Assembly: GCA_963663405.2 (NCBI GenBank)
Contig: CAXXSM010000150.1
Span: forward strand, 42,193-106,192
DNA length: 64,000 bases
Reading direction: 5' to 3'
DNA from: a bacterium
GTDB lineage: Bacteria > Hinthialibacterota > Hinthialibacteria > Hinthialibacterales > Hinthialibacteraceae
Of this stretch, positions 25,018 to 33,217 are shown piece by piece (within the stretch, counting starts at the first letter, position 1; the number at the start of each line of letters is the position of its first letter). The translations under genes and the position numbers were made by a program. The notes under the pieces are model-generated. The model was not told the origin of the DNA. It saw nothing but the letters and a program-made list of their open reading frames with translations, and ran no database searches.

Positions 25018-26022
25018 ATGAAATTCACAAACATTCTCAAATCCATAATTCTATCGATCCTGTTCACATATAGTTCCATAAATATATGTGCGCAGAATAT
25101 CAACACACCTGAAAACTTTCCCGGCCGGCTGTTTCGCGGTGCCATTGAAAAAATCATTGGCGTCGAACCCGGCGGATCATTCACCGCCGGACAGGCGGCG
25201 GAAGTCACACGAATCGATATTCCTTCTCTCTTTGATGAGACTGGATCTGTGACGGATTTAACTGGGCTGCAGTTTTTCCCTGCATTACGAAATTTCAACT
25301 GCTCGTCCAATCAAATCACGAGTATCGATCTCTCTCATAACACGGCGTTGGAAGTTCTACGCTGCAGTGGGAATCCATTAACGAATTTGGATCTCTCCCA
25401 CAACACAGCGTTAAAACGTCTTAACTGCAATGCGTGTCAATTAACCAATTTGGACGTCTCCCACAATACAGCATTAGATACTCTCCACTGTAAAATAAAT
25501 CATTTATCCAGCCTGGATGTTTCTAACAATGTCGCATTGGAGCGGTTTGACTGCAGTGAAAATCAATTAATCCATTTGAATGTAACTGGAGCCACTCCGT
25601 TGAGATTCCTCTTATGCTCCGAAAATCAATTATCCAGTTTGGATCTCTCTCAGAATACAGCCTTAAAAAGTCTGACGTGCGATACAAATCACTTAACCGT
25701 TTTGGATCTTTCGAACAATACGATCATGGCTGGAGTCTGGTGTTCATACAATCGGCTGACAAACATTGTAATCTCTGAAAGTGGCGCAATATCATTTTTA
25801 GACTGTTCGAACAATCATCTAACCAGCCTTTCCAGTTTCGTCTCCAATCCAAGTCTTGGACAAGATGACACGTTGATTGTCACAAATAACTACATTGGCT
25901 GCGCCGATCCAAACACTGCTCTCCATGATATCGAAGTTCTTAAAGAACGAATGGGAACCGGTTTTCGCTACGATCCCCAAAAAGAATGTGAAACCGGCGT
26001 AGAGGATTGGTCATTGCATTGA
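25018..26022 (+). CDS. Secreted single-module capped LRR protein (9 Cys-containing 21-aa repeats)
   Basis: RBS GGGGGAATC-ATG, signal peptide, NINTPENFP N-cap, LxxLxCxxNxLxxLDxSxNTA repeats, NNYIGC..YDPQKEC C-cap, ends TGVEDWSLH. Confidence 0.88.
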   Translation: MKFTNILKSIILSILFTYSSINICAQNINTPENFPGRLFRGAIEKIIGVEPGGSFTAGQAAEVTRIDIPSLFDETGSVTDLTGLQFFPALRNFNCSSNQITSIDLSHNTALEVLRCSGNPLTNLDLSHNTALKRLNCNACQLTNLDVSHNTALDTLHCKINHLSSLDVSNNVALERFDCSENQLIHLNVTGATPLRFLLCSENQLSSLDLSQNTALKSLTCDTNHLTVLDLSNNTIMAGVWCSYNRLTNIVISESGAISFLDCSNNHLTSLSSFVSNPSLGQDDTLIVTNNYIGCADPNTALHDIEVLKERMGTGFRYDPQKECETGVEDWSLH

Positions 26023-26516
26023 AAATAATAATTTCCTTTTTAGAAAAGAATTGTAAATAAACTGATAACAGAGGGAAATCATGTATCTCACAAGCATCTC
26101 TAAATTCACCGTCTCAGTCTTGTTTATTACAAGCCTATCGATCCCCACCTGGGCGCAGAATATCAACACACGGGAAAACTTTCCTGATCCAGAATTCCGC
26201 GCAGCTGTTGAAACGTTCATGAACGTCTCCGCGGGAGGTGAGTTTACCGCCGTGGAGGCGTCTTCGAAAACTAAAACGATGAAATGTTCTGGACAATATA
26301 AAAAAGCCTCTTCGCTATTTCATGTGGGTAGAGGGTAGAACCTCGAGAAGATTACATTCCAATTTTCCTCTGCCAAACAGATGGTTACGATCAACTTGTA
26401 GACGTTTCGATATCTGTTAAGCGACAAGTATTTTGCAGTAGGATTGCCCTCCATCGATCCGTTTGCGGGTCTGGATTTTATCGAAGAAAAAAGAACCATA
26501 TCTTTATGTGCCGCAT

Positions 26517-26742
26517 GCTTGTGGAGTCTGTGGTCAGGCGCCTCAATAATCTTTCTCATTCCCCCTAATCTTTCGCAGGTGGCTGTCCAAATCTTGTGGG
26601 CAAACCGGCAGGAACTTTCTCTTCTCACCCAGAGTATCGGCGGTTTGTCCATAAGATGGCAGAATCCACAAGCCCTCACTCGTTCGGATTACTGATCATG
26701 AATCGCAGACCGGAGAGACTCAGCCGGTTTCATCCGGTGTCT
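26517..26742 (+). ncRNA. Putative structured RNA within the IS, antisense to the transposase
   Basis: Nested stems 26517-30/26660-73 (13/14) and 26591-607/26641-57 (17 bp, 2 G-U), plus a hairpin at ~26707-26742; wobble pairs work only on the + strand. Confidence 0.35.
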
Positions 26743-26796
26743 TTTGCTTAGTTTGGCGGCTTGCCTGCAGAAACGGGAACGATTCAAGCCGTATTA

Positions 26797-28050
26797 CTAT
26801 TTCGTGTGGGGCGAGGGAAGAACCTTGGGAAGATTGAATTCCAACTTGCTTCCAATCAAATAGATGGTAGTGATTAAATTGTTGACGTTGCGATAGCCTC
26901 TCGCACGGGCCTTGGCGGCTTGGATCAGGCTATTCATCCCCTCCAACAGACCATTGTTGATTCGCGAAGTAAACCAACGCACCACACCAGCCCAGTGCTC
27001 CTTGATCGTTTTCGCGGCCTTGATCATAGGCTCAATCCGGCTGTGAGTCGCCCAATAATACCACTTTTTAAGAAACGATTCCCCCTCCTCCGGATCGTCG
27101 AACGAAAACACGTCTTGGAACACGGATCGCAGATGGTAGGCTTTCACCGTCTTCAATTTGCTCCCTCGTACATCTTGAAAAATTTCGTTCCGTTTCTTCT
27201 CTTGCTTGTCCGTGAGATTCCATTCATTCTTCAGCCAAATATACTTCGTCCCCTTCAATAATTCGGGATAAATCGCTTGGTCTTGTTTGCGCACTTCGTC
27301 CACAGCTTGATTGATAATCCTCATCAGGTGGTATTCATCAAATGTCATTTCGGCGGCCGGGAAATTGGCTTCAATCCCGGATTGAAACGCCTGGGACATA
27401 TCCAAACAAAATTCCTCCACCTGCTCCGCCTTTCCGTTATGCGTCTCTAAATCCTCTTTGAACGCCCCCACCGTTTGAGCGTCCTTTCCATCGGTGGCAA
27501 ACATCACGCTGCGCTCGTCCAAATCCATGAATACGCTGACATAATTGTGCCCTTTGGCCTTTGAGGTCTCATCCACCCCCACCGCCTTCACTCCCGAAAA
27601 ATCCTCCCTCTCTCGCGCGTCCATCACATAATGAGTCAGCACTCGCCAAATCAGCGTGTCATATTCTCCGACCACTCGGCTGATCGCATTGGCCGTCATC
27701 CCATTCTCCGCCAGTGCCATGACCAACGCTTCAAATAACAACGTAAATCCCGCCCCCGGACGGGCCCAGGGAAGATTCACTGTCTTGACTTTATGATTGG
27801 GACATTTCACACGAGGTTGCCGGGCGTGTAAATACGTCTCATACTGAAAGAAATTCAGATGCCTCCAAGTGCGTCGTTTCGTATCATGCACTCCACACAG
27901 GTTCCCGCATTCGGGACAGGGAAACAGACTCCCCTCGGGAAAGTCCAGCGTGAGGTGCAAGGTTTTTTCTTCCTCAGGAAACTCGGCCTGGACGACCTGC
28001 CATGGCTCACTCAAACCTAACGCTAACCGGAATAATTCTTGGTTCTTCAT
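26797..28050 (-). CDS. ISL3-family DDE transposase (intact)
   Basis: LFRLALGLSEPW, CPECG zinc finger, WRHLNFFQ, VGVDETS, LDMS, FDEYH, NGLLEGMNSLIQAAKARARGYRN. Confidence 0.95.
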   Translation of the reverse strand: MKNQELFRLALGLSEPWQVVQAEFPEEEKTLHLTLDFPEGSLFPCPECGNLCGVHDTKRRTWRHLNFFQYETYLHARQPRVKCPNHKVKTVNLPWARPGAGFTLLFEALVMALAENGMTANAISRVVGEYDTLIWRVLTHYVMDAREREDFSGVKAVGVDETSKAKGHNYVSVFMDLDERSVMFATDGKDAQTVGAFKEDLETHNGKAEQVEEFCLDMSQAFQSGIEANFPAAEMTFDEYHLMRIINQAVDEVRKQDQAIYPELLKGTKYIWLKNEWNLTDKQEKKRNEIFQDVRGSKLKTVKAYHLRSVFQDVFSFDDPEEGESFLKKWYYWATHSRIEPMIKAAKTIKEHWAGVVRWFTSRINNGLLEGMNSLIQAAKARARGYRNVNNLITTIYLIGSKLEFNLPKVLPSPHTK

Positions 28051-28060
28051 TCTCTTCCTT

Positions 28061-28078
28061 CTCTCTCTCTCTCTCTCT
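28061..28078. repeat. (CT)9/(AG)9 microsatellite just upstream of the transposase RBS
   Basis: CTCTCTCTCTCTCTCTCT, 10 nt from the start codon. Confidence 0.9.
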
Positions 28079-31000
28079 TGGGATTGGGATCTTTGCCTTT
28101 AGCCTGGGCGGAGGATCGGACCTTGCGGGGACGCGAACTGAGTGCTGACCAAGAAGACTGTCGAAGGACGGTCTAGCACCGCCCTTCTTGTTAGTTTATC
28201 TCGTCGGGATTGGTACGTAAGCGATATATCTTCGGGAGGATGGAGGAAAGCCTTCCCCAAATCTACCCACTCGATTCAGCGAAGAGCCATAAAAAACAGA
28301 AAATCAAAGAGACAACAGGATTGCATTTCTTCCCAAATATCACATCGCTCGATTGCTCGTGGAATCAGTTAAAAAAACTGGATCTCTCCCACAATACGGC
28401 GTTGCACTCACTCAAGTGTAACTGCAATCAATTGATCGAACTGAATCTCTCTCACAATACAGATCTAGAGGAACTTGACAGTTCGGGCAATACTTTAAAA
28501 AACCTGGATGTCTCCAACCTTACCAAATTATCCTCACTCACTTGCAGTAACAATCAAATCACCGTTCTGGATGTTTCTCAAAACACAGCCTTGAAACGGC
28601 TCTACTGCTGGGGAAATCAATTGACCCACCTGGACGTCACCCACAACACCGCGTTGGAATCGCTCTACTGTTTGAGCAATCAATTGACCAGCCTGGATGT
28701 CTCCAACGCCATCGAGCTGCAATCTCTCGACTGTCGGGAAAACCTATTGACAAGCCTTTCCACGCTCACCGCCAATGAAGGACTTAGTCAAGGAGACTAT
28801 GTCAACGTGCAAAATAACTATATCGGATGCGCCGATCCAGACACCACCGCGGCTGACATCCAAATTCTACTCGCGCGAATCGGCCAATACGATAAAAACA
28901 GCCGGCCACGCACAGGCTTCATTTTCGCGCCACAGAAAGCATGCGCAACAGAGACCCCGGATTCACAGAATATAAATACACCAATCTTTTTCCCCGATCC
29001 AAATTTCCGCGAGGCGGTCGAGGAATTCATGGATGTGGAACATAATAGAACATTCACGGCGGCGGAAGCCTCAATTAAAGATGGAACGCTGGATTGTTTG
29101 TTACTTGACATAAAAGATACAACCGGTCTAGAGTTTTTTCATGCTTTAACCGGGCTTAATTGCGCAGCCAACCAATTGACGCGCCTGGATGTTTCTAATA
29201 ATACAGCACTAACCGGCTTGATTTGCACTCAAAATCAATTAACAAGCCTCGATGTTAGTAACAATCCCAAGTTGGGACTGCTCCTTTGCTATGAAAACGA
29301 ATTAACAAGTTTGGATGTCACTCACAATCCCATGTTGGAATCACTTCGCTGTGATTTTAATCAACTCACCAGTCTAGATGTTTCTAATAATCTTGTATTG
29401 ACCACCCTCTGGTGCAGAGGCAATCAAATAGCGGATCTAGATGTCACTAACAACACTGCATTGTACTCTTTCTACTGCAGTGGAAATGAATTGACCAGCC
29501 TTTCAAGTTTTGTCGCCAACGAAGGGCTTGACGCCGGAGATTTTGTTAATGTCAGAGACAATTATATTGGCTGCATAGACCCTGACGCAGCCGCAAGAGA
29601 TATAGAAATATTAAAAGAACGTATTGGACAATTGTTTTTTTACGAATCCCAAAAAGACTGCGCAACCGCTCCCCCGGATTTACGGAACATCAACACATCG
29701 GAAAACTTCCCCGATCCAAACTTCCGCGCGGCGGTCGAAGAATTCATGGGTGTAGAATCCGGCGGTGGATTTACAGCGGCGGACGCTTCGATCAAAGAAG
29801 GAACACTGGATTGTTCCAACCGTGGAATCGAAGACTTGACCGGTATCAAACTCTTCCCACAATTAACTGGACTTATCTGCAAAGCCAATCAACTGCGAGA
29901 CCTAGATCTTTCCTACAACATCGCTTTAGAGTATCTCAACTGCTCCGCGAATCAACTCACCAGTTTGGATCTTTCCAATAACACGATGTTGAAGCGCTTC
30001 GATTGCAGCGCCAATCAACTCACCAATCTAGATATTCACAACAATACTGCCTTGGAATGGTTGGATTGCCATCAAAACCAATTAAACAGCCTCTCTAGTT
30101 TTACCGCCAACGAAGGACTTGGAACGGGCGACTATGTCAACGTACAAAACAATAGCATTGGTTGCGTGTACCCAGAGTCCACTGAGGCAAATATACAAAT
30201 TTTAAAAGAACGCATTGGTGAATCATTTTTCTATGAATCACAGAATGTGTGTGAAACGGATCCAAATAAAATACTAAACATTAATACTCCAGAAAACTTT
30301 CCCGATCCAAATTTCCGCGCGGCTGTCGAAGACTTCATGGGTGTGGGATCCGGTGGAGAATTTACAGCGGCGGACGCCTCGATCAAAGAAGGAACACTGG
30401 ATTGCGAGAATCGCGGCATTCAAGACATGACGGGTTTAGAACGTTTCCCTGCTATTCCCGGACTCGTTTGTGGAAGGAATTCTATTTCCAACCTTGATGT
30501 CTCTTATAATACCTCTTTAACTATTCTGATATGTGATTCACTTGATAATCTGACAAATATCGATCTCTCGCAGAACACCGCATTAGAGTCTCTCAACTGC
30601 GGTTTCAATGATTTAACCAGCCTTGACGTTTCACATAATACCGCTTTGGTCAATCTTGAATGCTATTATAATCAAATATCCAGTCTGGATGTCTCGCGCA
30701 ACGCCACATTGGAATCTCTCGTTTGTTATAACAACAAATTAACCAGCCTGGATGTTTCTAACAATCCCGGTTTGCATGAACTCGGTTGTGATCATAATCG
30801 ATTATCCAGCCTTGATGTCACACACAACACCGTACTGACTAAACTCACTTGTGGAGACAATGAAATACCAGATTTAGATATCTCCAAGAATCCTATGTTA
30901 GAATATCTCTCCTGCTCGTATAACCGGCTGACCAGTCTTTCCAGTTTTGTCGAAAACGAAGGTCTTGGCCCAAAAGATTGGGTAACTGTAAGCAACAATT

Positions 31001-33217
31001 ACATCGGTTGCATTGATCCAGAAACCGCACAGCAACACATTCAAATTCTCAAAGAACGAATCGGAGAAAGATTTTCATACGAACCGCAGAAAGACTGTAA
31101 CACAATGGACTTAGATTCTTTCAATATCAACACTCCGGAGAACTTCCCCGATCCAAAATTCCGAATAATCGTAGAGACTTTTATGGGTGTGAATCACGAA
31201 GGGGAATTCACAGCGGAGGAAGCCGCTAGTAAAGATGGTAAACTGGATTTTTCTCTTCGTGGTATCTATGATATAACCGGAATTGAATATTTCACTGGAC
31301 TGACAAGACTCGATTGCGGCGACAATCCATTGACTCGTTTGGATATCTCAAACAATACTGCTTTGATTCATCTAAGATGCGCCAGGACTCAATTAATCAA
31401 CCTGGATGTCTCCAACAATCTTGCTCTAGAGTCACTCTATTGCGATGGCAATCAATTAACCAGCCTGGACATCTCCAACAACACCGCTTTGACTACTCTT
31501 TTATGCAACAGTAATCTATTAACTACTCTGGATATCTCCAATAATCCGGCCTTAGAGACTCTCCATTGTGATGACAATCAATTAACAATTCTGGACATTT
31601 CAAAGAATTCCGCGGTAAAAACTCTCTACTGCGGTGATAATGCATTGACAGTCATTGATCTCTCAAACAATCCCGCGTTGGTGTATCTTCACTGTGAAGA
31701 CAGCCAGTTAACCGCCTTGGATCTCTCGAACAATCCCGAGTTGGAATCTCTCTACTGCGCTGGCAATCTATTATCCAGCCTGGATACCTCCAGCAATCCA
31801 GCGTTGATGTATCTACACTGTAACCGCAATCAAATATCCAAACTGGATGTATCTCAGAACACCGCGTTGGTATCTCTTAACTGTTATTGGAATCGATTAA
31901 CCAACGTTTCCAGTTTCACCACTAACGAAGGCCTTGGAACAGAAGATTTTGTCGATATTCGAAACAACTATATTGGTTGCGTGGATCCAAACGTATCGAA
32001 TAATGATATGCAAATTCTTATCGATAGAATTGGAGACAGTTTTAAATATGAACCACAATTCGATTGCAACACAGCAGAACCTGACTTAGCGAATATCAAC
32101 ACGCCGGATAACTTTCCCGATCCGAATTTTCGAAGCGTGGTAGAGGACATTATTGACGTACAACATGGTGAGCCATTTACTGCGGCACAGGCGGCTCAAG
32201 TAAAAAGTATGGAAATTGCCAGTAGTGAATATTATAGGCTTAATATCAATGATTTTTCTGGAATTCACTTTTTCACTGGCTTGGAGTATCTCAACTGCGC
32301 AAATAATAACTTAACTAGCCTGGATCTCTCATCTAACACTGCTTTAGTAATACTTCACTGCGTTTCGAATCAATTAACCAGTTTGGATCTTTCTCACAAC
32401 ACCGCGCTAAAGTCACTCGACTGCGATCACAATCAGCAATTAACCAATCTGGATATCTCTCAGAACACGGCTTTGGAATTCCTTGATTGCGATATGAACT
32501 TATTGACTAGTCTTGATCTTTCTCAAAATACTGCTTTGAAACATCTCCAATGTGAGTTCAATCAATTAAAAAACTTAAATCTTACGAATAATACTGCTTT
32601 ACAATATATCAAATGCGGGGGCAATCAATTAACTAGCCTGGACGTCTCTAACACAACTGCTCTAGAGCACCTTTCTTGCAGCAACAATCAATTGACAACT
32701 TTGAATGTTTCCAATTGTCCTGGTTTAATTGAACTATGGTGCCAAAGTAATCTATTAACCAGCCTGGATATCACTAAGAATCCTGCTTTAATTGAACTCG
32801 CGTGCAGGTACAATCAATTGACAAGCTTGAATGTCTCTCACAATATCGCTTTATCTGAATTCTCTTGCTCGAACAATCAATTAATCAATTTGGATATTTC
32901 TCAAAACACTGCGCTAGTTAGGCTCTACTGCGCTTGGAATCAATTAACCAATCTTGATGTTTCCAATAACACCGCATTGGAATATATTAACTGTTCAGAC
33001 AATCAATTGACAAGCCTTTCCAGTTTTGTCGCCAACGAAGGTCTTGGATCAGGAGACGCAGTGGAAGTGTACAACAATTACATTGGTTGCATAGATCCAG
33101 ACGCAGCCACAAGAGATATAGAAATTCTTAAAGAGCGAATAGGAAGAAGATTTTATTATGAATTCCAGAAGGATTGTGAAACGATGCCAACGAATTAATT
33201 TCCCATCAAGAAGAAAG

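Follow-up and report, generated by a model that had tools for sequence, protein, structure and literature searches.

A conserved three-way junction, putatively a structured RNA, in the right end of an IS21 lineage and its carriage by a composite ISL3 element

Here we describe a 373-bp non-coding fragment, located at 26415-26787 of the window (the whole 64,000-nucleotide stretch that was analysed), which is assigned, by comparison with homologous loci, to the right-end non-coding region of an IS21-family element. It contains a predicted three-way junction that is native to this IS21 lineage, where the istB stop and the terminal repeats flank it, and whose stems are, to judge from their conservation, under strong purifying selection. 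We infer that it works as an RNA read off the + strand. One IS21 lineage has gained a long 3′ non-coding tail with a constrained structured core, and nested insertions have given rise to a new composite insertion sequence that has taken this foreign non-coding DNA to 14 sites.

The composite ISL3 element

In the window, the fragment lies inside an ISL3-family element with the following features:

26306-28288, − strand: composite ISL3 element of 1983 bp, mobile as one unit (from its terminal inverted repeats, target duplication and copies)
26308-26332 and 28262-28286: terminal inverted repeats of the composite, 25-nt arms, 80% complementary
26298-26305 and 28289-28296: 8-bp target duplication ATAAAAAA
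26797-28050, − strand: ISL3-family transposase gene, 417 aa (Pfam and NCBIfam)
26306-26414, − strand: relic of an older ISL3, with an intact right inverted repeat and the ~33 last transposase codons
26788-26811, − strand: inner (right) end of the intact ISL3; its tip is degenerate, GCCGTATTAC vs GGCTCTTCGC at the left end

The encoded protein matches the Pfam family DDE_Tnp_ISL3 (PF01610, 2.6e-70), together with HTH and zinc ribbon domains, and reaches 323.5 bits against the NCBIfam model transpos_ISL3 (NF033550, cut-off 180). The genome that contains the window harbors 14 copies of the composite, and the fragment adjoins the transposase gene in 14/14; both tips could be located at 12 of the 14 loci, and 8-bp A/T-rich duplications are present in all 12. 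Thirteen of the copies are 99-100% identical over a 501-nt query spanning the fragment. Furthermore, in one public run a single contig corresponds exactly to 26306-28288, with a depth of 33 vs 2-5 in the flanks, and composite variants with 93-96% identity, including the junction 26487-26809, were found in runs from other studies. The relic aligns with 26788-26910 of the intact copy (89/131 columns identical), and its translation, ...RYRNVYKLIV..., matches the pattern of the transposase C-terminus. The fragment travels with the ISL3 composite by necessity, because the sole intact right inverted repeat lies past it.

The insertion interrupts a gene for a secreted leucine-rich-repeat protein, which has a signal-peptide-like start at 26081 and 63-bp repeat units on both sides of the composite; the long ORF at 28210-33198 is the continuation of this interrupted gene.

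An IS21 right end as the source of the fragment

The earlier note had attributed the structured region to a subgroup of ISL3 elements. This attribution does not hold, since its flanks are an istB tail and an IS21 terminal repeat, and the same module is found behind intact istA-istB in other genomes. The parts of the fragment that carry this assignment are:

26415-26787, − strand: captured IS21 right end, comprising R1, spacer, structured core and istB remnant (aligned with L044, L042, L046 and L047)
26415-26432, − strand: what is left of the IS21 terminal repeat R1, reading TGTTAAGCGACAAGTATT on the + strand (from the right-end comparison)
26683-26787, − strand: decayed istB remnant, the last ~20 codons and 3′ sequence (nucleotide alignment with the istB ends of L044, L042 and L047)

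The right ends of standard IS21 elements, such as IS5376 and IS21, carry two direct repeats, R1 and R2, which end in CA and lie downstream of istB (PMC10122671, consulted in part). Likewise, direct repeats R1/R2 with a terminal ..TTGACA were seen in L047, L044, L042 and L048, and the side of the homologues that faces away from the transposase presents, in order, a hairpin with a T run, the conserved motif CACCTCCTTT and two direct repeats ending ..TTGTCGCTTGACA. The core is situated ~180 bp inside the right end in IS21-type copies, and several MAG contigs end at the IS21 terminus or within about 75 nt of it. Relative to L044, R2 and about 95 nt have been deleted in the fragment, where R1 alone remains. 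On the opposite side, a full-length istB adjoins the core in L047, L044 and L042 (80% amino acid identity over 255 residues), and L047 has istA too, both IstA and IstB scoring above the NCBIfam cut-offs; the istB remnant of the window is too short for a significant tblastn match. IstA and IstB of this subgroup are absent from the genome that contains the window, where the best IstB matches are 33-35% identical.

In the closest annotated IS21 relatives, whose IstB proteins are at most 48% identical, istB is followed by about 80 nt (83 nt to the next gene in H1), whereas in this lineage it is followed by about 345 nt, junction included. The long tail is therefore a gain of this lineage. In a different IS21-type element of the genome that contains the window (L082 2270-2750, on contig C7, with copies on C55, C64 and C141), istB is followed by ~480 nt of non-coding DNA that finish with two CACTTTTCGACCGCCG repeats; no similar junction was found in this tail. 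Long tails may be common among the IS21 elements of this phylum.

The simplest history that accounts for the arrangement in the window would start with the insertion of an IS21 copy into an old ISL3, followed by that of a second ISL3 into the istB of this IS21, after which the unit between the two good ISL3 ends would have become a new mobile element of 1983 bp. Since the inner end of the second ISL3 is degenerate, the composite moves as one unit.

A three-way junction in the core

The stems, the later hairpin and the duplicated TAATCTTTC that had been named by the earlier note are all present where it claimed them, as confirmed by reading the sequence. A further hairpin, which it overlooked, joins the outer and the inner stems, so that the core takes the shape of a three-way junction:

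26517-26673, + strand: three-way-junction core (~157 nt), made of the outer stem, hairpin 1 and hairpin 2
26517-26530 and 26660-26673, + strand: outer stem, GCTTGTGGAGTCTG / CAGAATCCACAAGC, 13/14 pairs with a single G.A mismatch
about 26532-26543 and 26577-26588, + strand: hairpin 1, GGTCAGGCGCC / GGTGGCTGTCC, the overlooked one
26591-26607 and 26641-26657, + strand: hairpin 2, the inner 17-bp stem, including two G-U pairs
26544-26576 and 26608-26640, + strand: pyrimidine-rich apical regions of the core
26547-26555 and 26566-26574: duplicated TAATCTTTC
26456-26481, + strand: terminator-like hairpin and T run, ~40 nt upstream of the core
26709-26738, + strand: hairpin ACCGGA-GAGACT/GGTTTC-A-TCCGGT, followed by GTCTTTTGCTT; hairpin plus T run 26709-26749, terminator-like by scan

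The folding excess anticipated for the 346 nt under study was recovered on the + strand, with a minimum free energy of -118.8 kcal/mol and a z-score of -3.38 that none of 100 shuffles equalled, and it vanished on the − strand (z +0.32, 66/100 shuffles as good). For the 164-nt core, z is -5.5 on the + strand and -1.5 on the − strand. No match over the core was obtained with the Rfam 15 covariance models, either in small-window or in 6-kb scans: the former gave chance-level rows only, just outside or overlapping the core (E 4.7 and 3.7, far under the gathering scores), and the sole row of the latter fell at 25179-25203 (E 0.79). The homologue locus L049 likewise had 0 matches in Rfam.

Homologues and their genomic neighbors

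Eleven distinct homologous sequences were collected from the genome that contains the window, from related genomes and from metagenomes. A pattern scan gave five matches in genome contigs, two in metagenome contigs and none in viral contigs, while a covariance-model search found matches in 8/26 genomes of the order and in 1/5 genomes of the order of G035; blastn against plasmids found no match. The weak covariance-model matches in other genomes come from relics in which many pairs are broken or a hairpin is missing. Since relics lose the stems, these are kept only in living elements.

The core is always downstream of a transposase gene (istB, or that of an ISL3 or IS110-family transposase) and in the same relative orientation. 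An IS110 enzyme accompanies it only in L015 and L045, and none is present at 9 of the 11 distinct homologues. The genome that contains the window also has, elsewhere, a copy of the core alone, 73% identical. A single-copy gene for an IS110-family RNA-guided transposase (L049 3214-4344, on contig C153) lies 340 nt from a second copy of the core, and the arrangement of an IS110 enzyme beside the core recurs on the metagenome contig L045; it could represent either a targeted insertion into an IS21 tail or a second composite. A remnant of istB beside the IS110-linked copies (L049 and L045) was suggested by eye, and tblastn did not support it (E 0.046 or worse). The same locus contains, at L049 4982-5134, a ~150-bp repeat unrelated to the core, which has more than 30 copies in the genome at 72-91% identity and looks like a MITE.

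A Shine-Dalgarno-like motif, AAAGGAGGTG, is conserved on the IS21 sense strand in five homologues, about 70 nt from the core (about 1118-1130 in L047; 26446-26454 in the window). As a gene start on the − strand it was discarded, as no conserved ORF comes after it, and the ORFs that do, where there are any, are unrelated and 6-21 codons long; its likeness to the 16S tail, compared by eye, stops at the motif. The possibility of an invertible promoter (inverton) was also rejected: all 11 homologues share their internal orientation relative to the flanks, and contigs from four runs, in which rare forms can be missed, contain no strand-changing joint. The tyrosine recombinase encoded in L020 lies outside the IS21 end.

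Selection on the stems

Among the three intact IS21 copies, 68-73 of the 74 stem positions are identical (92-99%), vs 53-65% of the istB third codon positions and 23-38 of the 73 positions of the apical regions (32-52%). The stems are thus better conserved than the ATPase gene of the same IS21 lineage, and such a constraint calls for a function. Apical regions, in turn, are either long (~34 nt) or short (~20 nt), with a difference of 14-16 nt between subgroups, and CU-rich CTTTC-like motifs recur in them. Mismatches are conserved as well, each at a fixed place: the G.A of the outer stem, a G.G and a U.U/G.U in hairpin 1, and a G.U in hairpin 2 (10 of 11 homologues).

In the alignment of homologues, 97.1% of 407 cells are paired, compared with 35-44% in slid controls, so that pairing as such is conserved; together with the double changes and the variable loop lengths, this favors a hairpin over a double-stranded site. 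The covariation among homologues that had been proposed as a check was found in part: four pairs show double changes (a number reached in 7/500 shuffles), with a covariation score of 0.094 vs 0.064 (0/500 shuffles), and the signal is thin. Indeed, covariation evidence is modest because 21 of the 37 pairs are invariant and the set represents only ~6 independent lineages (effective sequence number 1.8). The sequence of the stems is conserved beyond the needs of structure alone, and this fits a protein-bound DNA or RNA site too.

Strand preference

The consensus fold given by RNAalifold has a value of -47.4 on the + strand vs -26.4 on the − strand, and in 11/11 homologues both the energy and the z-score are lower on the + strand (z from -2.2 to -8.6, against -0.9 to -7.0 on the − strand). 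The asymmetry between G-U pairs and A-C mismatches, described at the outset from the window, holds over the homologues, with 30 G-U cells on the + strand, made up of two conserved pairs plus ten one-sided changes, vs 2 A-C cells. A conserved fold that favors the + strand is therefore borne out, in the homologue set, by both folding and wobble asymmetry. Moreover, two of the three read variants that fall in stems are G-U/G-C switches (26580 T>C and 26669 C>T). A terminator-like hairpin lies 38-44 nt upstream of the core on the + strand in 5/11 homologues, the − strand having one such feature; downstream, on the + strand, it is present in only 2/11. Folding, G-U bias, read variants and terminator-like hairpins, altogether, point to a single-stranded + form, most simply an RNA.

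This strand runs inward from the right end of the insertion sequence and is antisense to istB, to the ISL3 transposase and, in L015 and L045, to the IS110-family transposase. The earlier suggestion that a + transcript containing the ISL3 relic would pair with transposase mRNA is weakened by the terminator-like hairpin at 26456-26481, which stands between the relic and the core. A sigma-70 scan of the + strand found no promoter.

Possible functions

The function that we propose, tentatively and with a probability that we would place just short of even, is that of a structured, inward-facing antisense small RNA of the IS21 lineage, which would modulate transposase expression and might be protein-bound. 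The RNA, bounded upstream and, in some copies, downstream by terminator-like hairpins, would measure roughly 200-250 nt and would persist as a long-lived structured antisense molecule. It would damp transposase expression in one of two ways, by base-pairing with read-through transposase transcripts at their 3′ end or by being bound by a protein via its sequence-invariant stems. Against this proposal stand the absence of a promoter from the sigma-70 scan, the divergence between composite variants of the bases directly before the core, the scarcity of downstream terminators (2/11) and, in the composite, the position of the putative RNA, clear of the ISL3 coding region.

Other functions could be conceived for a module of this kind. 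The same conservation at the sequence level, which resembles that of R1/R2, would be expected of a DNA hairpin, a cruciform or a protein-binding site that aids IS21 transposition without any RNA, in the manner of an internal transposase-binding or enhancer site; its position about 180 bp inside the right end and the decay of relics would also suit such a site. Nevertheless, 30 G-U vs 2 A-C cells are unexpected for duplex DNA or for a two-strand cruciform, the spacing of the half-sites varies by 14-16 bp, the arms share with R1/R2 only TTGT.G/GACAA-like fragments (by eye), and the closest annotated IS21 relatives do without a long tail (83 nt in H1), so we regard a DNA-level role as unlikely. 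The mirror structure could instead work on the sense strand, where it would make up the 3′ terminus of the transposase mRNA and would either terminate transcription or protect the message from 3′-exonucleases. The constant position and orientation of the core downstream of a transposase gene would agree with it, and most homologues surpass their shuffles on the − strand too (z -0.9 to -7.0), but this strand gives the weaker fold in all 11, both conserved and newly arisen wobble pairs turn into A.C mismatches on it, and no consistent T run follows the core; to this sense-strand role we accord very little probability.

A third option takes the RNA as a scaffold or cofactor, in which an IS21-encoded or host protein would bind the invariant stems and the variable apical regions would do the work, a layout that recalls guide or bridge RNAs. 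It draws on the contrast between stems (92-99% identical) and loops of variable length (32-52%), on the mismatches conserved at fixed places and on the recurrent CTTTC-like motifs of the apical regions. However, guide-like matches of the loops to insertion flanks were sought in three IS21 copies and none was found, the loops fitting the DNA that flanks the IS21 end no better than shuffles in 3/3. Loop duplexes with the translation-start regions of the ISL3, IS21 and IS110 transposases were not top-ranked (shuffle fractions 0.03-0.94), and IstA has the usual long-form architecture, with no additional Pfam domain. A scaffold thus seems rather improbable. Anti-Shine-Dalgarno pairing with the start sites of its own transposase was also discarded, its duplex energies not being top-ranked. 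More broadly, the core might stand for a new class of structured RNA borne by insertion sequences: a ~160-nt three-way junction whose invariant stems are recognized by a protein and whose apical regions remain free. One IS21 lineage would have acquired it, it would be portable between families (IS21, and ISL3 and IS110 as neighbors), and its role in transposition would be that of a cofactor or regulator, not that of a plain antisense RNA. We hold this to be a long shot; if true, a DDE/AAA+ (IstA/IstB) transposon would for the first time be reported to have an RNA component.

Relation to known systems

The RNAs encoded by insertion sequences act as regulators, as is the case of RNA-OUT, art200 and Asr9/Ssr9, or constitute the core of programmable recombination, like bridge/seek RNAs and omega RNAs. 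IS10 RNA-OUT and IS200 art200 are cis-antisense regulators of transposase translation. Like the core, they are IS-encoded, with very stable mismatched stems that are antisense to the transposase transcript, but they overlap the 5′ end and the ribosome-binding site of the transposase mRNA, whereas the core is a three-way junction that lies 3′ of the transposase genes, with no such overlap.

In the part of the literature that was consulted, the small-RNA module Ssr9/MITEPpu9 of ISPpu9, an IS110 element of Pseudomonas putida, is similarly placed downstream of the transposase gene as an optional passenger of the insertion sequence, is also found apart from the transposase and stays outside the recombination chemistry (PMC12288879, in part). 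Unlike the core, it has been experimentally shown, its carrier is an IS110 element, and copies of the end boxes of that element flank it (PMC12288879, in part). The host here is IS21, with ISL3 and IS110 neighbors as secondary ones, the sequence and the fold are unrelated, and the RNA is putative.

Bridge RNAs, or seekRNAs, of IS110/IS1111 elements share with the core the location in a long non-coding region of the insertion sequence and the combination of conserved stems with variable loops; they differ in being read in the direction of the transposase and in having loops that match target and donor (PMC11187229, PMC11208158, each in part). The core favors the opposite strand, occurs with the DDE enzymes IstA/IstB and no IS110 enzyme, and has no matches between loops and flanks in three IS21 copies. 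The idea of a bridge RNA, raised by the IS110-family neighbor in L015, was dropped because the module occurs with IstA/IstB elsewhere and favors the other strand. No description of an RNA of IS21 or ISL3 elements was found in literature searches that covered titles and abstracts.

Constraint within the composite

The comparison of two composite variants of the genome, which differ at 66 alignment columns, allows the fate of the core within its ISL3 carrier to be considered. Differences are distributed as follows:

Core: 4/164 (2.4%)
Stems within the core: 1/82 (1.2%), a G-U to G-C switch
Flanking non-coding DNA: 28/312 (9.0%)
Transposase third codon positions: 17/418 (4.1%)

Divergence of the core is lower than that of the flanking non-coding DNA (Fisher p 0.006) but not significantly lower than that of the third positions of the transposase (p 0.46). 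The most divergent part between the variants is formed by the 30 nt directly upstream of the core (13/87), and the differences at 26722, 26724 and 26725 all fall in the loop of the hairpin at 26709-26738.

The core is probably carried passively in the ISL3 composite, with at most weak signs of continued constraint. That it is altogether inert there, as dead IS21 DNA kept only by its place between the transposase gene and the sole right end that still works, is a serious possibility, which we judge slightly less probable than its opposite. The fragment must travel in any case, given the degenerate inner tip of the ISL3; the 14 copies make up one recent family, 13 of them being nearly identical; the divergence of the core is not under that of synonymous-like sites; and the genome lacks IstA and IstB of the subgroup. 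Against inertness stand the lower divergence of the core relative to neighboring non-coding DNA, the nature of the changes, i.e., a single G-U to G-C switch in the stems and three changes confined to the loop of the downstream hairpin, and the retention of the fragment by the 93-96% identical composite variants in runs from other studies.

As regards variation in the rest of the element, the copies of the composite range from 1978 to 1987 bp, and a (TC)n run at 28051-28080, immediately before the ISL3 transposase start, is 10 nt longer in one of the two variants than in the other and is possibly a length-variable spacer in the transposase leader. In a run from another study (X3), the relic and fragment (26314-26699) and the left-end tip (28206-28286) are covered at a depth of 9-26, with almost no transposase body at 85% likeness; the element concerned may be a derivative that lacks the transposase, or it may encode a divergent one.
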